A stretch of DNA of 64,000 nt from Octopus vulgaris. Taxonomy: Eukaryota. The position numbers were made by a program, and so were the translations under genes. Positions 4,075 to 63,211 of this stretch are shown in pieces. The stretch is from positions 92,132,001 to 92,196,000 of the forward strand of contig OX597818.1 in the NCBI GenBank assembly GCA_951406725.2, read 5' to 3'. Each line of letters opens with the position of its first letter. Positions within the stretch are counted from its first letter, which is position 1. The notes beneath the pieces were generated by a model. That model made no database searches, had not been told where the DNA came from, and saw only the letters and a program-made list of their open reading frames with translations.

Positions 4075-5642
4075 AATAATTAAGAGGAGGTGAAAGGATG
4101 AAAGGAAAAACGTTCATTCATACATGTTGGGGATATAGTGCCAAGATCAACTATGAGACGTTGCTCCTTCGTCTTCCTTTCCTAGAGAAGAGGGGGTCCG
4201 TGGCGCAAGGCCATACCATACACTGATAAATCTGCAATAGAATGATTCACAGTGTAGAAGTGGGTGGCGACAGATTGGCCTGGCATACAAAGCATTATGC
4301 TTCTGATGTGATCGCCAAAGCGATCCCCAAGGCGTCGCCTTGTTTCTCCAATGTAAAGAGCAACGCAGAGTTTGCATATGATGCAATATATGAGATTCGC
4401 CGAAGTGCAACAGAAGTTGTGTGTTATGTGATATTGCTTCTTGGGCCCCGTGATGGTGGTAATATTGTTGGTGTAGGAGCGAAAACATTAAAAGTTCCTG
4501 TGTTGTGTGGAGCTGGGAGCTGTGAAACTTCTAAGAAAGAAATTTCTAAGACACCAATTTTTTTAAAAGATAGGAGACGTGGTGTGGAAAAGATAGGGGC
4601 GGTTGTTGGGTCAGAAAGAAGAATGCGAAAGTTGTAGATGCGTTTATGGTTTGGAGGAAGGATGGACGGGTGGTAGGTGAGAGAGAGTGAGATACGGTCG
4701 GTGGAAGTGCGTAAAGATGGTAGGAGAGCTGTGGTGTGGTCGATGGCTTGGGATCGGTAGAGTGCGGAGTTGACAACTGATGGAGGATATCCTCGATTTA
4801 GAAAAAACTGTCGCATCGTTTTGCAATGGAATTCGAAATCCGAATTGATGCTGCAAAATCGTAGAAGGCGAAGAAATTGAGAGAAAGGTATAACAGATTT
4901 AATGTGATTGGGATGAGAGGAAGACTAGTGGAGGTAGGTGTGGGAGTCAGTAGGTGGAGTCAGTAGGTGGAGTCAGTAGTAGTGGAGAGGTGGGTATTGT
5001 GTTTCTTGGCGGAGATGTCAAGAAAACAAACAGAAGTATCAGATATGGTGTGGGTGAATTCCAAGGCTAGGTGAAAGGTGTTAACAAAAGAAATAAAATC
5101 GTTGAGCTGTTGTCTGTTAAGGCTTGTGGTACCAATGCAGTGGCCTATGTAACGACCATAAAGCTCTGGGATGGGTCCAGGGAAGTGAGCAAAGATTTGC
5201 TCCTCTATATAACCTATAAAGAAGTTGGCATAATTGGGGCCCATCCTGGTGCCCATAGCAACACCACCATAGAATATACCTGAGAAGGAAAAAGAAGTGA
5301 GTGTTAAGACGAGTTCAGCTAGGCGGAGGAGTGTATTAGTGCTGGATTCAGGTACAAATCGACGGTCTAAGAAGTGTTTGAGTGCTAGTAGACCGTCACT
5401 GAGAGGGATGACTGTGTACAAAGATTTAATGTCCATGGTGAAAAGCAGTTTGGATTCACCAGGCAGAAAAGAGAATGCGTTGAAGAAGTGTAGTGCATGG
5501 TTAGTGTCTTTTATATTTGAAGGTAGAGCAGTGACGAGAGGAGATAAAAGTTTGTCGAGGCAGGAAGATAAAGGTTCTGTGGGACAATTGCACAACTACA
5601 AGCAGAGACAATAGGGCGGCCTAGATTATCTTGTTTATGCAT
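4075..5642 (-). pseudogene. Penelope-like retroelement, degenerate RT and GIY-YIG endonuclease
   Basis: ORF 4960-5595 carries PLE RT motifs (MDIKSLYT, GVAMGTRMGP, YGRYIGHC for YxDD, FLDI). Downstream frames give FLNRGYP and SLTYHP. Many frameshifts. Confidence 0.9.
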
Positions 5643-6712: not shown

Positions 6713-7227
6713 AGAAAGTTAGACGTTGTGAATCCAACCAACTAAGGGATAACATCTATCCAATATACTGCTGGTAGAATACCCAATTATTAATATACAA
6801 GTGTTTTTTATTGAATTGCAGTTACATTACCGAGCGTACTAGATGGATGAGGGTAATGAGTTATTTTACCATTAATTTATAGAGCAATAAGAAAATGGAG
6901 GGGATCAATAGATGGTTCATCAACTTTTAGACATTATATTATGTCAATTTATTTATTCATTTACTAAAATGACGATTACAAGAATATACATACATGTATA
7001 GCATATTATGCTTTAGATATAAAATATAGAAATATACCAGTAATTATTTCCTGTATGTTATATTTTAATAATTACTGGTATCTTTATATGTTTTATATGT
7101 AAAGCATATGTTATACATGTACGTATATTCTTGAAATGGTCATTTTGGTAAATAAATAAATAAGTTGACATAATATAATGTTTAAAAGTTGATGAATCAC
7201 CTATTGATCCCCTCCATTTTCTTATTG

Positions 7228-7230
<3 letters not shown>
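6713..7230 (-). mobile_element. Fold-back PLE-like terminal repeat (arms about 6881-7047 and 7068-7230, unpaired tail of about 170 nt)
   Basis: Imperfect inverted repeat bounded by agagcaataagaaaatggag / ctccattttcttattgctct and flanked by microsatellites. Related to 14102-14456 and 21910-22168. Confidence 0.7.
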
Positions 7231-7311
<81 letters not shown>

Positions 7312-9268: not shown

Positions 9269-9550
9269 GACACAGAAAAAAAACAAGGAGAGAAACTTGG
9301 AGAGGAAAAAACGTGTGTAGTGGCTAACGATCTATCATGGCGACTATATGTATATATATATATATGCAAATGTCCACGTATGCCAACTTACCACACAGAC
9401 TTTTGACACGCAGAAGTAAGCACCTTACAGATACGCGTATACAAAAACGTTTACAGGTTCACACCACCCAAACATATAATATATATTGTTTATTTCTTGG
9501 CTACTTAGAGTGTAAATTACAATATTGACAATTAGGAGAATGAAGAATTC

Positions 9551-9724
9551 GAACATTCAAAGTTTGTTTATTTCTTGTTAGTTTATTCATAGTAACTGTC
9601 CGTCACGTGTTTCGATCGCATTAACTGCATATTGTTGCATGTATTCAGTTAATGCGATCGAAACACGTATCGGACTAGTATTGTGAAGAAGCTAACTCGA
9701 AATAAACATAGAGCTTGAATGTTC
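9551..9724. repeat. Imperfect palindrome of about 175 bp (fold-back/MITE-like)
   Basis: Perfect core acgtgtttcgatcgcattaactg / cagttaatgcgatcgaaacacgt, extending out to gaacattcaa / ttgaatgttc. Confidence 0.8.
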
Positions 9725-9759
9725 ACCTTTTTCAGTCTCTTTATCATATTATTTTATTC

Positions 9760-14104: not shown

Positions 14105-14451
14105 AATTGAGATAGGGGTTGTAAATGCAACCCTCCATGAGATAACATATATCTAATATACTGCTAGTGAAGTACCCAACAAAGTTTATGCATAAATGTT
14201 AAGGATTGCGATGCAATCGATGCATTTACTGTATTATATGGGCAAAGGTAAAATGATTTACCACAAATTACTAATACAAGATAAGAAAATGGAGAAATAC
14301 ATCTAAATCAAATATCAATTACCAGATAATACTCAATCACATACTTTATTAAACCACCACATCTCTTATGTGGTGGTTTAATAAAGTATGTGATTGAGTA
14401 TTATCTGGTAATTGATATTTGATTTAGATGTATTTCTCCATTTTCTTATCT

Positions 14452-14456
<5 letters not shown>
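14102..14456 (-). mobile_element. Fold-back PLE-like terminus with perfect 89-bp arms (14274-14362 and 14368-14456)
   Basis: Perfect inverted repeat with a 5-nt loop (ctctt), an unpaired tail of about 170 nt, and (TA)n on both sides. Confidence 0.8.
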
Positions 14457-14765: not shown

Positions 14766-15230
14766 CATCGAAAAATTTCCCAAAGATACCTGATGAAGGC
14801 TAGAGGGTGTATCAGCCGAAACGTTGTGTTAACAACAAACAAGATGAGGTCAAATATCCGTCAAATGTAAGTAATGTACATAATTTCTCATCTCTTAAAT
14901 ATAGAACTGGTACTTAATTTATCAACCCCAAAAGGATGAAATGCAAAGTCAACCTCGGCGGAATTTGAACTCAGAACGTAAAGACAGACGAAATATCTAT
15001 TTCTTTACTACCCACAAGGGGCTAAACACAGAGAGGACAAACAAGGACAGACAAACGAATTAAGTTGATTATATCGACCCCAGTGCGTAACTGGTACTTA
15101 ATTTATCGACCCCGAAAGGATGAAAGGCAAAGTCAACCTCAGCGGAATTTGAACTCAGAACGTAGCGGCAGACGAAATACCGCTAAGCATTTCGCCAAGC
15201 GTGCTAACGTTTTTTACCAGCTCGCCGCCC
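14492..15230. mobile_element. Cluster of SINE family B fragments in both orientations
   Basis: gtcgactttgcctttcatcc on the plus strand at about 14501, and two tandem minus-strand copies at about 14910-15230. Confidence 0.7.
14785..14830 (+). ncRNA. Minimal type I hammerhead ribozyme (canonical core) in an (AAT)n-anchored short repeat (14765-14905)
   Basis: gauac CUGAUGA a ggcu...agcc GAAA cg UU guguu, with palindromic stem III (AACGUU). Confidence 0.7.
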
Positions 15231-18943: not shown

Positions 18944-19023
18944 ACGGGAAGCTTTATGAAAATAAACAAAAGACGAAGGCAGGTGGAAAACAAACGAACA
19001 ATTGTATTAGTATGTATATATAC

Positions 19024-19100
<77 letters not shown>

Positions 19101-19103
<3 letters not shown>

Positions 19104-19273
19104 CGGAGATGTACTTGCATAGTAAGTGATTTGATCTGAGATCGTGTGCTGAAACGAAAACAATTGCAGCGTGGAAGGTGTTTTTAAGCCATTTAAGAAA
19201 CACACAAAACTGTTAGATTCACTTCAACATTTAAGTTTAATTTGTCAAATTAAACCTTCCACGCTGCAATTGT
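19101..19273 (-). mobile_element. Short fold-back PLE-like terminus (same family as 35450-35803)
   Basis: Starts acggagatgtacttgcatag, has the inverted arm accttccacgctgcaattgtt, and is embedded in (TA)n. Confidence 0.7.
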
Positions 19274-20398: not shown

Positions 20399-20461
<63 letters not shown>

Positions 20462-21039
20462 ATCCAAACAAGAAAACACAGAAAAAAACACAGCAACGCG
20501 AGGACGTGGAACAATTAAAGTATTATTTGACGACTCAATGCACACACACACACACACACACATTCATATATATATGTGTGTGTGTGTGTGTATTATATAA
20601 TGTTGCGTAAACATCTGTGTATCAATTGATATATAATATATGTGTTTATGTGTGTGCTTGTTCGTACGTGTTAAGCAGTGGTGCGTGTGTGTGTGTGTAT
20701 ATATGATTGTGTATATGTGTATGTATTTGTGTGTGTATGTGTCTGTGTGTAAGTATGTGTGCGTGAGAGAATAAGTGACAGACAGACAGACAGACAGACA
20801 CCCAGACAGAGTTTTGGGTCTGTTATAAACGTGGTTAAGAAGTTTATTTCACAGCCACGTGTTTTGCGGTTTCAGTCCTACACAATGGACTCTTGAACAC
20901 GTGCGTTCCTTTAGTAATTGAATCATGAATTGAATAATTCTTTGAGAGTGAAATTTGGTGGACAGAAATCCCATCTTGTGTCCCATATATGTGTCCATGC
21001 TATCGCGCGCGTGGAAACCTATACTCTTATTATACACTT

Positions 21040-26888: not shown

Positions 26889-27312
26889 CATAAATACATA
26901 CATACATACATACATACATACATACATTCATATACATGCATACATAAATACATACATACATACATACATACATACATAAATACATACATACATACAAACA
27001 TACATACATACATACATACATATACATATATATGTGTGTGTGTGTGTGTGCGCGCGCGCGCGCGTGTGTGTGTGTGTTCAAGCATATCAGTTCAAATATT
27101 TTTAGATCAGTTCAAATGTTTCGGGAGAACCATTCCGATTTGGCAAAGAGGACATTCTCATTTGAGGCAACAGGTGTTTTTACAAGTCAGTTATGTCCTA
27201 AACATATTTGAACTCATCCGAAAATTTGTTTAATTCCCATCACTGCTTCGTGTATCAATTACATAAGGTATATATAAACATATATATCTATATATATATA
27301 TACATTCTTATA

Positions 27313-28556
27313 TCAGGCTGTGTAAAAAGTAAGCAACATTTTGAAACATGAAATTCATCACAATATGTTTCAACAATGCAGAAATTTTGTTCATCAAAGT
27401 ATGTACCATTACAATCAACACATTTTTGCCAACGAGTTACAAGTTTGCTTAGTCTGGTAACATAAAAGTCTGGAGTTTTGGAGCAGTTGAACTCTTTGAA
27501 CGCATTTTCAGCATCGTTTTGATTTTTGAACTCCTCTCGCAGGAAGCCATCAAGGTACTTGAAAAAGTAGTAGTCGGTAGGAGAAAGGTCTCGGGAATAA
27601 GCTGGGTAGCCAAGTTCGCAGCCAAGTTCCCTCAACTTCTGGAGCGTCATTAGTAAAACGTTTGGTCAATCATTGTCATAGAGGTTGATTGGCCCTCTTC
27701 TGTTGAGCAGTCTGGGATGGAGGAGTAGCAGTTTTTCGTTCATTTTGGCAATTTCATGGCAATATGTTTCTGCAGTAATGGTTTTTCCAAATTTTAAGAA
27801 GTTATAGTGGACGAGTTCAGTAGTACACCACCAAAAAGTCACCATAACCTTCTTTTTGAGGAGATCAGGTTTTAGGGAGGTTTTTGGCGCTTCATTTTGG
27901 TCCAGCCATTGCGAAGAACGTTTTTTATTATTGTACAGAATCCACTTTTCATCGCAAGTTACAATACGGTTGAGAAATGGATCAGTCTGGTTACGGAATA
28001 GAAGCGACGAGCAAATTTCATATCTGTACTGTTTCTGATTTTCATTCAAATCTTGTGGTACTCATTTGTCGAACTTTTTTGGCTTTTCGATCGCATGCAA
28101 GTAGTTACAGGCAGCTTTCTAGTTAACTTGAAGTTCTTTTGCCAGTTCTCGCGTAGTTTTACGTGGATCTTTCTTAATGACGGTCTTTAATTGACCGACA
28201 TCGATGACAGATGTGCGTCCACTACGCTCACGATCTTCAAGGCTCATGTCTCCACTGCGAAATCGTTTAAAACATTTTCAAGCTGACAACTCACTGATCA
28301 TTTCCCCACCAAACGTTTCGTGATATCGCGAGCAGTTTGAGATGCTTTACGTCCTTTTTTGAAGTTGAATAGCAAAATTGCTCAATTATCACGCTTTAAG
28401 AGTTCCATTTCAGATGTTGTAACAACGGTGAAAAAAATATCAGTGTTAATTTATTGATACATTTGGGCAAGTCTATGTCTTTATTATCAGACAATTGCAA
28501 AAATCCGGAAGAAATTCCTCATGCTTCAAAACGTTGCTAAATTTTACTCAACTAGA
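27313..28556 (-). mobile_element. Full-length degenerate mariner (D,D34D) transposon
   Basis: Transposase motifs IVTCDEKW, YDND (for HDNA), YSRDLSPTDY and RWQKCV, with stops and frameshifts. TIRs tcaggctgtgtaaaaagtaagcaacattttgaa / ttcaaaacgttgctaaattttactcaactaga, with TA flanks. Confidence 0.92.
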
Positions 28557-31969: not shown

Positions 31970-32019
31970 GATTCATATCAACGTTGATTTCAGATTTGAC
32001 TAATCTTCATCAGTGACCC
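31970..32019 (-). ncRNA. Type I hammerhead ribozyme, canonical core
   Basis: Reverse complement: ggguca CUGAUGA agauu-aguca-aaucu GAAA ucaacguuga UA ugaauc, within a PLE-like terminus at about 31788-32125. Confidence 0.75.
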
Positions 32020-32425: not shown

Positions 32426-32481
<56 letters not shown>

Positions 32482-32550
32482 GGACAATTCACAAAAAAAA
32501 ACAAAGACGAAGACAGGTGTGATAGACAACAAACAGATGTTATGTATATA

Positions 32551-34554: not shown

Positions 34555-35449
34555 TATATGTATATATTTATATATATACAAATATATATAGATACATATA
34601 CACACAAATATATATAGATACATATACATATATAGATGCATATATATATATACATAAATATATATATACATATATATGTATATAAATGTACACACACACA
34701 CATATCTATATATACATCTAACATACATAAGCAAATGTGGGAGGTACAATGGGAGCTGCACATAATGTGATAATGAGAGAAAATGTTGACATAGGCAAAA
34801 TATATTGTTTCATGCATTGTTACTGTGTCAACTGAGATCCCAGTTGACAGGCCCCTGATATTAAATAGTTAACACTTACGGTATGCAAATCAGTAGCCCC
34901 AGTTATCTGTATTTACCGTATTTCTTGAGCAGAAATAATAATGGTTGTTTGTTGCGCTGAGTTTGATCAAATTAAGATAAACGCCTTTGATAAGAACCTA
35001 TTAAGGCTCGAGAATCGATTAAGGTTGTTAAGGTTGTCTGTCATTTCTTCAATCTACTGAGAAACTAGTTAAATATACCCTTTTAATTACACACTCACAC
35101 ATACACACAGACATACATACACACATACACGCATGCACGTATATATATATATATAAATATGCGTGTGAGCATGCATATGTACGCGCTATGCATATATGTA
35201 TATATGCATATATGTGTAAGTGTATGTGTTTCTGGAGAGAGAGGGAGGAAGAGAGGGGGAGAGAGAAAGAGAGAGAGACAATATATGTTATGCTATGTAG
35301 TGGGGTTACATTTTACAGTATGGAACATTTTAATGAATACGGTATCGTATATGATATAGTGTGTATGGTATCTTATATTTTATACCATTGTTTATGCCAC
35401 GCTGTGGTATAGGCTCTGACGTGGGTTAATATGTTATAATATAAGCTCT

Positions 35450-35803
35450 TACGGAGATGTACTTGCATAGCAAGTGACCTGATCTGAGATTGTGTGCTGG
35501 AACGGAAACAATTGCACTGAGTAAGGTGTTTATAAGCCATTTAAGAAACACACAAAATCCGTTAGATTCACTTCAACATTTAAATTTAATTTGTCGAAAT
35601 ATTTTCGTCGCTTTAAGACCGCGATCTGTTCACTGACAATATTCTGTGCTGCATCTGAGACTTTCTCAGATGCAGCACAGAATATTGTCAGTGGCCTCAA
35701 AGCGACGAAAATATTTTGACAAATTAAATTTAAATGTTGAAGTGAATCTAACGGATTTTGTGTGTTTCTTAAATTGGCTTATAAACATCTTTCACGCTGC
35801 AAT
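35450..35803 (-). mobile_element. Fold-back PLE-like terminus with target-site duplication
   Basis: Inverted arms meet at gcatctgaga-ctt-tctcagatgc (35661-35663). Direct repeat aatataagctct at 35438-35449 and 35801-35812. Confidence 0.8.
35591..35639 (-). ncRNA. Type I hammerhead motif with G3:C8 swapped core
   Basis: Reverse complement: uuguca GUGAACA ga ucgc-ggucuuaaa-gcga c GAAA auau UU cgacaa. The other arm has ugacaa, which restores a 6-bp stem I. Confidence 0.6.
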
Positions 35804-36631
35804 ATAAGCTCTCATATACATCTATTCTCGTTTCTCTATCATACCAAATTATCACCTCCAAACAGTTTTTTTTTAACTTACATAATGATAGTATTTCATG
35901 TTTGGAAAAATATTTAAAGAAAAATTTAATAAAATTTGATCTGTTAATAGTAAAATATATAACTGGAATAAATCAAAATAAGTAGTCTTTGACTAATTGC
36001 CGATCCGTGTTATCACCGATCAGTTCGTGATAAGCGTACCGTGGTTCGCAATTGGGTGTACCATGTCATCTCGGACCGGTGATGTATGAATCGGTAATAA
36101 AGTATATAGATGTACTGAACATTTCCCAAAACTTAGCATCCGAAGGTCGGAGGTCAAGTCTACTGCCTGGATATTTAGTGTTCATAAATAAACAACATGT
36201 GTGTTGCTATGGTACAGTTGGATACCTATTTAACATAACACCATGTTGATTACTTTAGTATTATATGTTACATAGATAACATATTATCGGTTATATATAT
36301 GAGACAATGCCTGCTGTTATGGCTCAACGTAGATAAGAATATATAAATATACATACACGACACACCCACATAATCATCTGAATGAAGTAAGGTATTATGC
36401 TTTGCTACCTTCAGTGTAGACATGGTTGAATGACTAAGAATTTAGCTACAAGCATTCACGTTCAATTCCACTGCGTTTCATCGTATGTGACTCCTACTAT
36501 GTTCACGATTCATTCAAACTCTTGTAAGTGAAATTCCATCCTCAAAAAAAGGGCTATAGACGACGCTTTTCCTTTCTTTTGACTCTTTAACAATGAGTAT
36601 GTTGTTGTTGTTGTTGTTTTAGTAGTAGTCG

Positions 36632-37931: not shown

Positions 37932-39769
<1,838 letters not shown>

Positions 39770-39771
<2 letters not shown>

Positions 39772-41808
39772 TAAGAAAGTTTGTTTGGTAAAGCACGTGG
39801 GTGAATATATAAGAAAATAGTAAAGTGTGAAAAAACGACAGAAGGCTTAAATGTTAAAAGATATATATATTTGTGTCAAAATGTCTGGAGAATATTGAAA
39901 AATTTTTTTTTCCCCCTTTCCTTAAAATGACAATTTTTAAATTTTTAAAGAAATACCGGTTTGTGTAGCTTTTCAAATTTCTTGTGACGTTATGTTTATA
40001 TTGCATGGATTTATCGTTGTTTTTATTTCAGGAGATTTCTAAATAAGGGGAGGTAGTGATTTTTTCGGTGTAGGGAGATAATCGCTTAAAAAATTTTTTC
40101 CCATTTCCTTGTTAATTTCTCTGTGTCGTATGTTCGGATGGTTGAGTCTGGGTTTGTACTTTTCAATGAAGAACTTGTTCAGTCTCATTTGTGTTGATGA
40201 TCCGAAAGCACATTGGTAAAATGGGAAGATTAGAAATTGTGGCAAGTTGCTTTGGCATTTTCAATGTGCTCACTGTATCATTCTATATTCTGGGAATGCA
40301 ATCTGTTGTCGATGCAGTGTGCATCTGCGCCTAGTGATAGTCCCGTGGAACCCACGTAGTCTTGGTGGCAGCCCGAGCATTTATATATATGTTTTAGTTA
40401 TTTGATCTTAAATTTCTGTCCTTCTTTAAAGAAGAATTCTGATCCTTCCAATAGGTTAGGACATGTTATCGATCTACCACATTTTTTTACTTTTATCCGT
40501 AATTTTAGAAGACAATTTTGCCTTTGTGAGAATCTTTTAATGATTTAGGCTGTTTGTAGCTTTTAATGATTTGGTGTATGTTTAGAACTTAATTTTGGGT
40601 TTTTATATATTGGTAAATTCTGGGTGATGATGGTGAACTGGGGTTGTATGTAGATATGTAAGGTAGTATTTTCGGGGAAGGTGTGTTGTTGTGTTGAACT
40701 TTTCTAAAGTTTCACGTCTGATCCCATCCTCTATGAGTTGAGCTGGGTAATGTCTGTCAATTAGGGTGTTTTTGAGTTCTTGCAGTCTAAAGTTCCTGGT
40801 ATTTTGTTCTGACACTATTGTGCATATCCTTCTTGCAAGGTTGAAGGGTATGTTTGTTTTAGTGTGTCTTGGGTGGCATGAATTAAAAAGAAGGTATTGT
40901 TTGGCGTCTGTGGCTTTGTAAAAAATGTCTGTTTCTATTTTAAGGTTAATTTTTTTAATTATATATCCAAGAACGGAGCTCCTTTTGGTTGTATTCCATT
41001 GTGAACTGTATATTTGGGTTTATGCTGTTCAATAGGTTTTTAAATTTTAGTTTATCTATGTTTTATTCCAGAGAATGAAACAATCGTCTAGAATCGTTTC
41101 CAATTCTCTTTTATGTATTAAGGACAAAGATTGATAGAGACTGTAAATATTAATGTATCCCATTGTTAACAATGACTGGTGCTGCCCTTGTACCCATAGC
41201 AATTCCGGATTTTTGAGTAAAATGTATTGTCAAACATGAAGTGGTTATTGTGTAGGATGAATTCAATTGATTTAGTAATGAATTCCTTACTGATCCTTTT
41301 GGTATTTCTTCCGGAATATAGAATGATACCTTTTAGTGAGCACATTGAGAAATGCGCAAAGCAACTACTGCCACAATTTTTAATCTTCCCATTTTACCAA
41401 TGTGCTTTCGGATCATCAACACAAATGAGACTGAACAAGAAACATTCTTCATTGAAAAGTACAAACCCAGACTCAACCATCCGAACATACTGACACAGAG
41501 AAATTAACAAGGAAATGGGAAAAAATTTTTAAGCGATTATCTCCCCTACACCGGAAAAATCACTCACTACCTCCCTTATTTAGAAATCTCCTGTAAAAAC
41601 AACGATAAATCCATGCAATATAAACATCAAGAAATTTGAAAAGCTACACGCGAAACCGGTAATTTCTTTAAAAATTTAAAAATTATGTCATTTTAAGGAA
41701 AGGGAAAAAAAAAATTTTTCCAATATTCTCCAGACATTTTGACACAAATATATATATCTTTTAACATTTAAGCCTTCTGTCGTTTTTCACACTTTACTAT
41801 TTTCTTAT
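39770..41808 (-). mobile_element. 5'-truncated Penelope-like element with an inverted terminal repeat at its 5' end
   Basis: Minus-strand remnants SGIAMGTR, LDDCF, FLDI, YKATDAKQYLLFNSCHPRHTKTNIPFNLARRICTIVS and HYVGSTG (GIY-YIG). About 39807-40290 is mirrored at about 41315-41808. Confidence 0.88.
41629..41668 (+). ncRNA. Minimal type I hammerhead with U3:A8 core
   Basis: aagaaau UUGAAAA gc-uacac-gc GAAA ccgg UA auuucuu, with a perfect 7-bp stem I. Confidence 0.65.
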
Positions 41809-41883: not shown

Positions 41884-41928
<45 letters not shown>

Positions 41929-41931
<3 letters not shown>

Positions 41932-42199
41932 TAAACACATAAATGTGAAACAAGGTGGAAAAAGAGTACTCGAATACCAATGGTAGAGTAATATGCTTTA
42001 TTTAAAGCAGCAGAAAATTCAACAAAACCTGTTACTCTGAGTTTCCCGTTGCCGTTCATGACAGCATGCGCACTAAATTTTAACGCTCTTGCTCACTCGT
42101 GCTGTTTACAGCTAGAATCTAGCAAAAACTGTCCGATGAACGGCAACGGGAAACTCAGAGTAACAGGTTTTGTTGAATTTTCTGCTGCTTTAGATAAAG
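41929..42199 (-). mobile_element. Short fold-back of the 38346 family with a captured mariner-TIR spacer
   Basis: Same tail and arm end as 38346-39699. The right-arm HHR core reads CCGAUGA. Spacer 42064-42113 matches 32890-32939. Confidence 0.8.
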
Positions 42200-43845: not shown

Positions 43846-45002
43846 AGTGCATATATGCATATATTCATATATATATATACATGTATGCATATATATATAT
43901 ATATACATATTTATATATATATATATATTTACATATTGGTGAATTGAAGAAATGGAGCTGAACGCAGATTGAACAGAAATCGTTTTATTTCATTCTACAC
44001 GTGTTTCGAAAGGCACAAATTACCAAAATCCGATGGAATAATGGGACCATATTGTGTCTTTCTCTTCAGGAAGAAAATAGGAAATCCGTTGGAAAAACAA
44101 AAACAGAACAGAGGCGGAGCAAAAACAAATCGAACTATGCTCCTAAGAGCCCATGGCGAAACTGTTTATCAGTGTATGTTGAGAACCGGTGGCTGAAGAA
44201 TTCAACGGGTCAAGCATCGGTCAATCATGTGGGTGAGGGTGCGTAGATGTTCTTTGTGACCGAGAATAAAGTTCTGACTATTTAAAGAATATTGGATGTT
44301 TTATAAGGGGCGAGAAAAAATTTACTTAGAGACGTGTGTGTGTGTATACTGTTCTATATATGTGTGTGTTGGCGTAGGGGTAGAAAACATTTTTTGTGTA
44401 CGTGTGTGCGTTTGATCGTTCGGCTGTCAGTGGCTACTGCCGTGATAACCGTTGAGTGGCAGAAAAAAAATATATATATATCATGTTTTATGTGTGTGTA
44501 TGTTTTCATCTAAGCCTGTCTTGTCAAGGAAACCCCCCGCTGTGAAAAAACCAAGCCCCGTTTGTCTTACAGGAGTAATTCCCCTTGCAGTGGTTAATCG
44601 TAGATATCTTAAAGGCTATTTCATAATTTGTTACCAAGGGCTATGGGTGCCGGTATTATTTATAAACGCTATTTAAAAGCCAGATAAGTGTAACGCCGCC
44701 AATGGGGGCATCGAAAAGCCGACTGTAAAAGCCCGTTTACCATCCGGCCTCTGGCAAACAAAATATGGAAGAGTTCGGAGACACAAAGGTTGCACTGCCT
44801 TCTGCCCCTATCAAATGGGAGGGCCACCGACAAAATGGACCATTCCAGCCTGTAGCTTAAGTTCGTATCCTTCAGTCGCCATATTAGCTTACTGAGTCCC
44901 GTGGTCTGGCGCTTGTTCATGTCCCGAAAAGTTGCGTAATGGTTGGAGACACGCAAAGACAATCTTGAGGATGAGGCCCCTACATAAGTGAACTCAGATG
45001 TC

Positions 45003-45326
45003 TTCACTTATGTAGGGGCCTCATCCTCAAGATTGTCTTTGCGTGTCTCCAACCATTACGCAACTTTTCGGGACATGAACAAGCGCCAGACCACGGGACT
45101 CAGTAAGCTAATATGGCGACTGAAGGATACGAACTTAAGCTACAGGCTGGAATGGTCCATTTTGTCGGTGGCCCTCCCATTTGATAGGGGCAGAAGGCAG
45201 TGCAACCTTTGTGTCTCCGAACTCTTCCATATTTTGTTTGCCAGAGGCCGGATGGTAAACGGGCTTTTACAGTCGGCTTTTCGATGCCCCCATTGGCGGC
45301 GTTACACTTATCTGGCTTTTAAATAG
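45003..45326 (+). pseudogene. C-terminal GIY-YIG endonuclease fragment of a PLE (mirror at 44669-44992 on the minus strand)
   Basis: YVGAS..R.S.H..TF...TGLSK.IW.LK...W.IL...CNLC..E...CPH is the PLE endonuclease C-terminal pattern. The frame is open to the stop and lacks its N-terminus. Confidence 0.8.
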
Positions 45327-45916
45327 CGTTTATAAATAATACCGGCACCCATAGCCCTTGGTAACAAATTATGAAATAGCCTTTAAGATATCTACGATTA
45401 ACCACTGCAAGGGGAATTACTCCTGTAAGACAAACGGGGCTTGGTTTTTTCACAGCGGGGGGTTTCCTTGACAAGGCAGGCTTAGATGAAAACATACACA
45501 CACATAAAACATGATATATATATTTTTTTTTTCTGCCACCCAACGGTTATCACGGCAGTAGCCACTGACAGCCGAACGATCAAACGCACACACGTACACA
45601 AAAAATGTTTTCTACCCCTACGCCAACACACACATATATAGAACAGTATACACACACACGCGTCTCTAAGTAGATTTTTTTCTCGCCCCTTATAAAACAT
45701 CCAATATTCTTTAAATAGTCAGAACTTTATTCTCGGTCACAAAGAACATCTACGCACCCTCACCCACATGATTGACCGATGCTTGACCCGTTGAATTCTT
45801 CAGCCACCGGTTCTCAACATACACTGATAAACAGTTTCGCCATGGGCTCTTAGGAGCATAGTTCGATTTGTTTTTGCTCCGCCTCTGTTCTGTTTTTGTT
45901 TTTCCAACGGATTTCC

Positions 45917-46010
45917 TATTTTCTTCCTGAAGAGAAAGACACAATATGGTCCCATTATTCCATCGGATTTTGGTAATTTGTGCCTTTCGAAACACGTGTA
46001 GAATGAAATA
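45917..46010 (+). ncRNA. Type I hammerhead ribozyme with extended stem II (mirror at 43986-44079 on the minus strand)
   Basis: uauuuucuuc CUGAAGA gaaagacacaa-(33 nt)-uugugccuuuc GAAA cacgug UA gaaugaaaua. Confidence 0.8.
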
Positions 46011-46229
46011 AAACGATTTCTGTTCAATCTGCGTTCAGCTCCATTTCTTCAATTCACTAATAATGTTCTAATTTCAATTATCCGCACCAACGCACGGTTG
46101 CAACACCATATGGTTGTACCTCCAACCGTGCTGTTTTACTGCTGTGATTTTTGCTACTAAGGTATCGGTTAAACTTTTGATTAATCTACTACAAGATTAT
46201 TCATCTTTCTATTTCACATTATATATATT

Positions 46230-47715: not shown

Positions 47716-47719
<4 letters not shown>

Positions 47720-47989
47720 TAGAAGAAATGAGGTAATCAGAAGATTACCTCATCGTTCATATTTATAGATATTTATTTATATATTACATTTTTTACATAT
47801 ATATATCATATCATTCAGATCATATCATTCAGATTATTAGCGCTTTCTCCCATTCTAGTGGGGTTTTCAAATCAAATTAATTCCTTTGTGGGGAATTTAA
47901 TCATTTTATAGAGTTTCGTAGTTGTGGGGAGGAATAAGACAGTACAAGAGGGTGAAGTTGATGAGGAGGAAGTGAGAGAGAGAACATGT

Positions 47990-48034
<45 letters not shown>

Positions 48035-48642
48035 TATCTTAGGCTAAAGAGAAAGAGGGGAAGCGAGAGGGAAGAAGAAGGATTTCCTTTGGTCTGCTGG
48101 ACCCCCAAGGGAGTTCTAAGAATTTTAGCCATTTGTCTATTTTGGTGTCACTGAGTGTGTGTTGGTGGGTAGGCAGGCCATAAATTACACCTTTTATGAT
48201 TTTGAGGATGGTCAAATACCTCTTCTACTTTGTATGATCGTTTTATGGAGGTGTGTGTGTGTCTCTGTGTGTCCGTGTGTGTTTGTGTGCGTGTGTGTGT
48301 GTGTCTCTGTGTGTTTGGAGAAGAGGAGAGAGACAAAAAGAGAAAAGGGAAAATAAAAATAAAAATAAAAATAAAAATAAGGGAGGAAATGGAGAAGAAA
48401 AAAAAATTTTTTTGTGTGTTGATATTTATACCACTACATATATATACACAGACTTATACATAAAATATTGGAAAAAAAACCTTTTATCGGTTCAAAATGA
48501 ACAACCAAATTACACCATCTTGAAAATTGTATATCATAGGAAAGTTAAATTTAAAGTGACAATTAAAAAGTAAAGATGGAAGTAAATTATAAAGATAATA
48601 ATATAATGTATATAACAGGCAATATATATATATACATACACA

Positions 48643-48693
<51 letters not shown>

Positions 48694-49094
48694 AGACATA
48701 TACTAAATGTTCTACTATATTAGATTGTAAATCGAAAGATGCGTCCTTCAATGTCACTATATATATATACATGCTTACACATGAAATATTTAGAAAAAAC
48801 CCACCTTCTATCGAATCAAAATGAACAATCAAATTACACCATCTTGAAAATTGCATATCATAGGAAGGTTAAAATTAGAATGACAATTGGCAAGTAAAGA
48901 TCAAGTAAATTACAAAAACAATATAATGTATATAACAGGTAACATATATATACACACACACCTATATCTTTACTTGCCAATTGTCATTCTAATTTTAACC
49001 TTCCTATGATATGCAATTTTCAAGATGGTGTAATTTGATTGTTCATTTTGATTCGATAGAAGGTGGGTTTTTTCTAAATATTTCATGTGTAAGC

Positions 49095-49141
<47 letters not shown>

Positions 49142-50195
49142 CATTGAAGGACGCATCTTTCGATTTACAATCTAATATAGTAGAACATTTAGTATATGTC
49201 TGCATGTGTATATATATATATATATATATATATGTCTGTGTATGTATATATATATATATATATTGCCTGTTATATACATTATATTATTATCTTTATAATT
49301 TACTTCCATCTTTACTTTTTAATTGTCACTTTAATTTTAACTTTCCTATGATATACAATTTTCAAGATGGTGTAATTTGGTTGTTCATTTTGAACCGATA
49401 AAAGGTTTTTTTTCCAATATTTTATGTATAAGTCTGTGTATATATATGTAGTGGTATAAATATCAACACACAAAAAAAAATTTTTTTCTTCTCCATTTCC
49501 TCCCTTATTTTTATTTTTATTTTTATTTTTATTTTCCCTTTTCTCTTTTTGTCTCTCTCCTCTTCTCCAAACACACAGAGACACACACACACACACACAC
49601 GCACACAAACACACACGGACACACAGAGACACACACACACACCTCCACAAAACGATAATACAAAGTAGAAGAGGTATTTGACCATCCTCAAAATCATAAA
49701 AGGTGTAATTTATGGCCTGCCTACCCACCAACACACACTCAGTGACACCAAAATAGACAAATGGCTAAAATTCTTAGAACCTCCTTGGGGTCCAGCAGAC
49801 CAAAGGAAAACCTTCTTCTTCCCTCTCCCTTCCCCTCTTTCTCTTTAGCCTAAGATACAAACACACACACACACACATACACACATACACATACACACAT
49901 GTTCTCTCTCTCACTTCCTCCTCATCAACTTCACCCTCTTGTACTGTCTTATTCCTCCCCACAACTACGAAACTCTATAAAATGATTAAATTCCCCACAA
50001 AGGAATTAATTTGATTTGAAAACCCCACTAGAATGGGAGAAAGCGCTAATAATCTGAATGATATGATCTGAATGATATGATATATATATGTAAAAAATGT
50101 AATATATAAATAAATATCTATAAATATGAACCATCCGATCTTGTGATTACCTCATTTCTTCTAATATATAATACCTGTACATCATCTCCAAACCT

Positions 50196-57265: not shown

Positions 57266-57302
<37 letters not shown>

Positions 57303-57521
57303 ATGTCTGGGAAGAGTCATTCTCTTTTGGAGCCTTATCATTTAACACACTCACCGGTAAAGTTTCTACTCATTTACTTATTTATTTAGCGGTGAGTGTG
57401 TTAAATAATAAGGCACTAACAGAGAATGACTCCCCCCAGACACAACAAAATATGTTTAAACACACTAAATCACATAAAGAATCTTGCAAACCAAATCCCA
57501 AAATGACATATATACATAATC

Positions 57522-61484: not shown

Positions 61485-63211
<1,727 letters not shown>

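Follow-up and report, generated by a model that had tools for sequence, protein, structure and literature searches.

Does a hammerhead ribozyme carried by a retrotransposon cut its own RNA in the octopus, and has the cut left a mark in the genome? The question is raised by a locus in a 64,000-nucleotide stretch of Octopus vulgaris DNA, here called the window. The original prediction placed a hammerhead with a G3:C8 pair at 35591-35639 and held that a sister copy at 19101-19273, which ends close to the predicted cut, was reverse transcribed from a self-cleaved RNA.

In the accessible parts of PMC4209133 and PMC11167929, the hammerheads of animal Penelope-like elements (PLEs) have low activity in vitro and no evidence of activity in vivo, and in one element the hammerhead has no effect on insertion. 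If the proposal were true, run-off insertions would be a genomic record of the minimal hammerhead of a metazoan PLE working in vivo during retrotransposition. Since copies are many and the start of reverse transcription lies 146 nt from the predicted cut, the question can be tested from assemblies alone: every insertion made from a cut template must have one and the same length. Without a peak of breakpoints, the finding shrinks to a modest entry in the catalogue.

The motif lies on the minus strand and has the form of a minimal type I hammerhead (35591-35639). The 5' strand of helix I (35639-35634) is followed by the catalytic core GUGAACA (35633-35627), in which G3 is 35633 and C8 is 35628. 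Then come helix II, GAAA (35606-35603) and helix III (35603-35598), whose strand AAUAUU is short and self-complementary and is predicted to pair only in a dimer, with a duplex energy of -0.2 kcal/mol. Hammerhead numbering puts the predicted scissile bond after U17 (35597), between 35597 and 35596. The parts that define the core class, N3-U4-G5-A6-N7-N8-A9 with a Watson-Crick 3:8 pair, GAAA and UH, are all present from 35633 to 35597. The canonical identity C3:G8 is absent from this copy, which has G3:C8, and the predicted anatomy is borne out.

A hammerhead descriptor matched three times in the window, against 0.01 times per shuffle in 100 dinucleotide shuffles, none of whose matches had G3:C8; the descriptor was composed after the motif had been seen, which makes this a loose control. 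The fold is weak. Its helices amount to -5.9 kcal/mol, and a folding program finds nothing unusual in the stability of the motif (z -0.01). A search of Rfam gave 253 matches, and the 150 listed contained no hammerhead model, only noise from microRNA models, driven by microsatellites.

Two private mismatches affect this copy, so that 5 of 6 pairs are formed in helix I and 4 of 5 in helix II. The first is at 35596, which is G on the plus strand; the predicted 3' product thus starts with C, and an A.C mismatch stands at the base of helix I. The product had been said to start with U. That is wrong for 35591-35639 itself and right for the inverted right arm of the same locus, as well as for 97-100% of the contig depth of the family. 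The second mismatch, in helix II, falls in the 35624-35625 region (35625).

What is private and what is common can be told from the contigs of four public runs, matched to 35421-35663 at 80% likeness. Three DNA runs with three organism labels gave 14818, 10876 and 6953 matching contigs. The fourth, X9, gave 182, and its RNA nature is only guessed. The family letter at 35596 gives U1.1, and the family letter at 35625, found in 98-100% of contig depth, completes helix II. Since both letters are near-universal, both mismatches are private to the copy at 35591-35639, and in the family form helices I and II are paired. A variant at 35594, which turns a U-A pair into U.G, is common in the family (16-40%).

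A canonical G8 would appear as G>C at 35628. Places with at least 1% of G>C number 1, 1, 0 and 0 in the four runs, and the sole such place is 35565. C>G occurs at one place (35517) in three runs, with one further place in X1 beyond those listed. By these transversion counts C3:G8 stays below 1% in all four runs, with 38 further rows that could include transitions at both bases. Because canonical G8 never reaches 1%, G3:C8 is the state of the family and no decay of a single copy. The original prediction had spoken of a rare core variant; the G3:C8 core is there, and it occurs family-wide across three organism labels. The persistence of G3:C8 with intact pairing across these labels suggests selection for the predicted activity. 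It would be a natural case of a swap that the literature searched gives only for engineered mutants. A descriptor restricted to CUGANGA passes over such a core.

Pattern scans for copies of the family elsewhere gave none in viral contigs and none in prokaryote genomes; in metagenomes 23 loci were found, none of them family-like beyond the motif (best E 0.016).

The likely nature of the element that carries the hammerhead is read from a short piece of protein. The first 30 codons of its open reading frame (ORF) lie at 35540-35451 on the minus strand, and the element ends exactly at codon 30. They match the N-terminus of P0001, a protein labelled Octopus bimaculoides (81% over 26 amino acids, E 4e-4, the sole match), and the first 30 residues of P0002. 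The frame is extended by P0003, with which 29 proteins of 680-1222 amino acids, 28-55% identical to it, were found; P0002 aligns with one of these (E 4e-24).

Long relatives are thus linked to the locus through a chain from the 30 codons over P0001 and P0002 to P0003, and by their motifs they carry a reverse transcriptase (RT), a linker with cysteines and an end that resembles GIY-YIG. YVDD or YIDD is present in 29 of 29, CX2-5CxxC in the second half of 25, and the motif YxGE(T/S) in 24. In Pfam, 10 of the 29 gave one match to RVT_1 and one to GIY-YIG, both weak and below the cut-off. A PDB search with P0008 gave no informative match, and no relatives turned up for another frame, of 43 codons, that spans the hammerhead. 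These motifs point to an EN+ Penelope-like element, and the linker in the relatives points to one of Neptune or Nematis type, a clade named by motif and not by a tree. P0002 itself is a gene model that joins the ORF start of the family to a methyltransferase domain, and may reflect either faulty annotation or a chimeric transcript that really exists.

The form of the copies agrees with a terminal repeat of such an element. Hammerhead and ORF start lie together in the repeat, the end falls inside the ORF, and the tail is one-sided: the inverted arms end at family 35508 in the sister and 35511 in the locus, which gives a tail of 57-60 nt. Both copies have inverted partners, the sister sits in a (TA)n run, and the consensus flank at 35449 is AT-rich. 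This flank is carried by 202, 216 and 153 contigs in the three DNA runs, counts that are not copy numbers, and 35449 is the top place for loose ends in each run.

A non-LTR retrozyme was also considered. Such elements are head-to-tail tandems of non-coding units with a hammerhead in each (bioRxiv 2026.07.22.740005, in its accessible part). It was rejected: the copies here are single or inverted, form no tandem units and contain an ORF start.

The first arm of the locus (35451-35660, minus strand) is a pseudo-LTR fragment with 5' leader, hammerhead and the 30 codons, and it extends 64 nt beyond the predicted cut; it was therefore likely copied from uncut RNA. The inverted second arm (35664-35803, plus strand) also crosses the cut site, and carries the U form. 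An 11-nt deletion has removed most of its core. At the apex (35661-35663), the inverted arm reaches 3-4 nt farther into the family than the first arm, and only 1 nt is common to both; the family continuation past 35660 was taken from the loose-end consensus at 35660. The join looks like two cDNAs placed end to end. A 12-nt direct repeat, likely a target-site duplication, frames the insertion, with its left copy at 35438-35449 and its right copy at 35801-35812, the latter overlapping the end of the arm by 3 nt.

Directly upstream of the hammerhead, the sense strand (35654-35663, with the loose-end consensus at 35660) has the look of a splice acceptor, with branch point, pyrimidine tract and an AG ending at 35655. 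An intron adjoins the Penelope hammerhead of D. virilis, and the stretch upstream of 35639 resembles that arrangement.

The sister copy has a first arm at 19249-19103 on the minus strand, 89% identical to the first arm of the locus, and an inverted part at 19246-19273 on the plus strand. The inverted part begins with 10 nt complementary to 19235-19244 and then jumps to a copy of 19160-19177, a second jump that has already cost it about 75 nt. As had been described, the sister keeps to the family sequence as far as 19249 (family 35598) and then turns back close to the predicted cut, which lies after 19247.

The position of the break can be fixed only within five positions (19245-19249, family 35594-35598), because TTTG-T-CAAA is self-complementary; the four nucleotides CAAA fit both arms. 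A fold-back after a stop at the cut, 1 nt beyond it or 2 nt beyond it would give an identical junction. On a GTC loop these three stops would form 1, 2 and 3 pairs, with DNA hairpin energies of +3.1, +2.1 and +0.9 kcal/mol. Of the 147 positions in the sister arm, 11, including 19249, allow a snap-back of at least 3 bp, and 83 allow one of a single pair.

Two readings of this junction have to be weighed above all. One is that a minority of templates was cut by the G3:C8 hammerhead, that the RT reached the 5'-OH end 146 nt from its start and ran off it, and that the run-off end was closed by fold-back or by a second cDNA, with the sister as such a product. Strand, direction and position all agree with it: with reverse transcription likely starting 146 nt downstream of the cut, the cDNA of a cut RNA would stop at precisely the sister's end point. 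The other is that the sister most likely came from uncut RNA, its cDNA passing the predicted cut by 1-2 nt and then folding back on a TTT-GTC-AAA hairpin. Both arms of the 35451-35803 locus cross the predicted cut, and the ambiguous junction of the sister is open to this reading as well. A small hairpin at the cut likely accounts for the sister's stop at least as well as cleavage does. All three hairpins are unstable, however, which speaks against read-through, and the apex of the locus, joined on 1 common nucleotide, shows that junctions of the family can form with so little and that a cut end needs no hairpin.

If the cut were a preferred stop, other copies should end there. A hand tally of the window took in 15 arms from five families with hammerheads: 11 run past their own cut, 3 stop 25-34 nt short and 1, the sister, ends at it. 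The tally omits the 22462 family (four pieces, in which no core was located), a single match at 32013, and the palindromes 43934-46062, 47717-50166, 9536-9739 and 57298-57448. Under a flat model, one arm in 15 ending within 2 nt of the cut has a 26-40% chance of arising. The fit of the sister to a self-cleaved RNA in strand, direction and position is thus matched by a junction that read-through would also produce and by a tally at chance level.

The truncated copies at 18945, 20457 and 32478 had been said to stop farther away, and they do, 25-34 nt before the predicted cut of their own family. These three copies (18953-19013, 20458-20537 and 32481-32540) belong to two other families and share a similar stopping distance. 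Their likeness hints at stops linked to structure, as would be expected if the RT paused at a folded helix I or III of uncut RNA and then switched template. A fold as weak as this one, with helices of -5.9 kcal/mol and a z of about 0, makes such a stall highly improbable for the sister.

The contigs allow a wider view. Most of their depth runs through the cut site: the ratio of depth at 35609 to depth at 35594 is 0.95, 0.84, 0.66 and 0.69 in the four runs, where depth is no measure of copy number and drops near the private letters of the 35591-35639 copy. The positions 35594-35598 are not among the six loose-end places listed for each of the three DNA runs. If the listed rows are the best supported, the cut region accounts for at most 37 of 1222, 44 of 1314 and 29 of 882 partly matched contigs, a ceiling of about 3% of these contigs and about 20% of the count at the element end. 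With 668 more loose-end rows and 33 more joints beyond those listed, a stop enriched as much as about tenfold over a flat background could escape notice. The loose-end peaks at 35516, 35523, 35546 and 35639 were not counted, since their places are private differences and their consensus continues the family. A listing of places where many molecules end was empty, a measure to which contigs do not speak. The missing dominant stop argues against a cleavage footprint.

Long pieces give a more mixed picture. Among 32 that were listed, 19 reach at least 35599, which agrees with read-through as do the 11 window arms; 5 end at 35594 and 8 earlier. Thirteen of the 32 have at least 20 unmatched letters on the ribozyme side, and their breaks are at 35541, 35594 (twice), 35610, 35611, 35612, 35619, 35650 (twice), 35651, 35653, 35656 and 35660, on the assumption that the coordinates of each record run in the record's own orientation. 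Five of these, at 35650-35656, lie beside the acceptor-like stretch.

The two breaks at 35594 (X11 record 9 and X9 record 25, with 35 and 368 unmatched letters), together with three further contigs that end 2 letters beyond 35594, favour cleavage over read-through. Pieces that start at the element end and have a break include two at 35594 and one orthologous-looking pair at 35610-35612. The binomial probability of two in 11 breaks within a 5-nt window is 0.03-0.07, where 35610 and 35612 were merged as one probable locus, 35660 was dropped (the family continues there) and the list was itself selected for length. Against cleavage, the breaks read 35594 and not 35595, and the reference's private G at 35596 collects nearby ends at one place. 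The peak of breakpoints that the original prediction called for is not seen as a dominant stop among the places listed, and a minor stop at the cut is possible.

Joints between two parts of the family are informative as well. Of 15 listed, 9 switch strand and three touch the cut region, joining 35592 with 35638 or 35639 and 35595 with 35656, the last in two runs. In each of the three, the partner arm extends past the entire core, as read-through would have it; the 35595-35656 joint can also be counted for cleavage. The complementarity of helix I would, for its part, pile junctions up at the cut without any cleavage. The joints fit either reading.

The sister might also have lost its centre later. 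It would then once have been a long palindrome like 35511-35803, from which the middle was deleted between the direct repeats TTTGTCAAA and TTTGACAAA. These near-identical 9-mers do lie on the two arms, in direct orientation in an intact palindrome; the inverted arm of the sister is already short by about 75 nt, and the right arm of the 35451-35803 locus has an internal deletion of its own. The event is nonetheless unlikely: two deletions are needed, and long near-perfect palindromes survive in the window (44315-45680, 99%).

Taken together, read-through of uncut RNA with a turn-back on a micro-hairpin is the best explanation, held with about even confidence. The course of events would be as follows. 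The RT-endonuclease would nick AT-rich DNA and prime inside the ORF at codon 30, with a second priming start about 57-60 nt farther into the ORF. On the model of PAc, the Poseidon element of Anolis carolinensis (Frangieh et al. 2024, PMC11167929), the cDNA would start at 35451 and meet the predicted cut after 146 nt. A ribozyme that is slow and depends on a dimer or on protein would leave most templates uncut, and cDNAs would end at scattered places, to be closed by an inverted second arm via 1-4 nt of microhomology. Selection for activity, as the conserved G3:C8 pairing suggests, weighs against read-through as the whole account. A cleavage footprint at the sister is less probable than read-through, though a serious contender. 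The broader proposal, that the G3:C8 hammerhead cuts its RNA in the germ line and that a minority of 146-nt insertions, the sister included, are run-off copies, is more doubtful again and can be put forward only tentatively.

A second PLE-like family in the window (9263, minus strand, and 33799, plus strand) has one copy with the core CUGUAGA and one with CUGUGGA, both reading U at position 6; upstream, the two copies stop at a shared point next to (TA)n. A third (38346-39699 and 41928-42199) combines the canonical core CUGAUGA with a helix III of greater length, and 4 of its 4 arms cross the cut. Further canonical C3:G8 motifs are found at 14790 (plus), 61401 (minus) and 32013 (minus), the first two forming one family next to (TAA)n runs.

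Two large inverted repeats, 43934-46062 (2.1 kb, 99%) and 47717-50166 (2.5 kb, 88%), are likely fold-back insertions, and 6881-7231 and 14277-14453 are short palindromic, MITE-like elements with related terminal inverted repeats. ORF remnants lie at 61623-62978 (plus), 4424-5595 (minus), 40603-41019 (minus) and 27288-28061 (minus). They include a 451-codon frame with a weak match to zf-RVT; Pfam and PDB searches of the other remnants gave no informative matches. Among the last three are two frames that we take, by eye, to be pieces of PLE RTs, and presumably a remnant of a mariner-like transposase.

The literature searched held no natural G3:C8 hammerhead; it included part of the supplementary text of PMC4209133, but neither Lunse et al. 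2017, reportedly the large survey of PLE hammerhead variants, nor Arkhipova et al. 2017, which makes this a weak negative. Beyond a remark on RNA-seq for PAc, it held no comparison of breakpoints with cut sites. The accessible main text of PMC13282606 does not mention ribozymes, and the supplements of PMC11167929 gave no text matches.

An example of the class to which the octopus element belongs is provided by the pseudo-LTRs of metazoan PLEs, which carry minimal type I hammerheads (Cervera and de la Pena 2014, PMC4209133; this and the following comparisons draw on the accessible parts of the sources). The octopus hammerhead shares their type I topology, the extra nucleotide after A9, the short palindromic helix III, the common U17 and, in its family form, the G10.1-C11.1 pair. 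Those elements, too, are mostly single truncated copies, with pairs on opposite strands 100-700 bp apart. Metazoan minimal hammerheads cleave poorly in vitro, even as dimers (PMC4209133; PMC6765202), which favours read-through. Their cores in PMC4209133 are C3:G8 with U3:A8 as the only natural variant, unlike the G3:C8 of the octopus family. U3:A8 is likewise the natural covariation in Perreault et al. 2011 (PMC3088659), whose core variants share a compensatory change at 3:8 and differ in its letters. Engineered hammerheads with G3:C8 are described in PMC11167929, PMC8495972 and PMC3884650. The cysteine linker CX2-5CxxC is described for the Neptune and Nematis EN+ PLEs (Craig et al. 2021, PMC8557442); in the octopus it is seen in relatives of the family and not in a full-length copy of its own.

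PAc is the closest parallel in mechanism (PMC11167929). There, reverse transcription begins at two sites within the first part of the ORF, and both strands of AT-rich DNA are cut. The octopus family likewise has an element end inside its own ORF start, two probable RT starts with a tail at one end, an AT-rich target, and a hammerhead shortly before the RT start. The measures differ: the predicted cut precedes the start codon by 56 nt in the octopus family, where the cut of PAc follows it by 26 nt, RT probably starts 90 nt into the ORF against 111-118, and the tail is about 57-60 nt against a usual 30-40. The cysteine linker of the octopus family's relatives is absent from Penelope/Poseidon.

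The main template of PAc in vitro is uncut RNA, and RNA-seq gives no reads that end at its cut, a negative result that speaks against a cleavage footprint. PAc cuts only with protein, in line with the slow, dependent ribozyme of the read-through account. Its C3G/G8C mutant keeps partial activity, no more, which can be counted for either reading. What is engineered in PAc is natural in the octopus family. That PLE terminal repeats hold hammerheads and that truncated copies occur inverted is already known; by the literature searched, the natural G3:C8 core is a new variant of these hammerheads.
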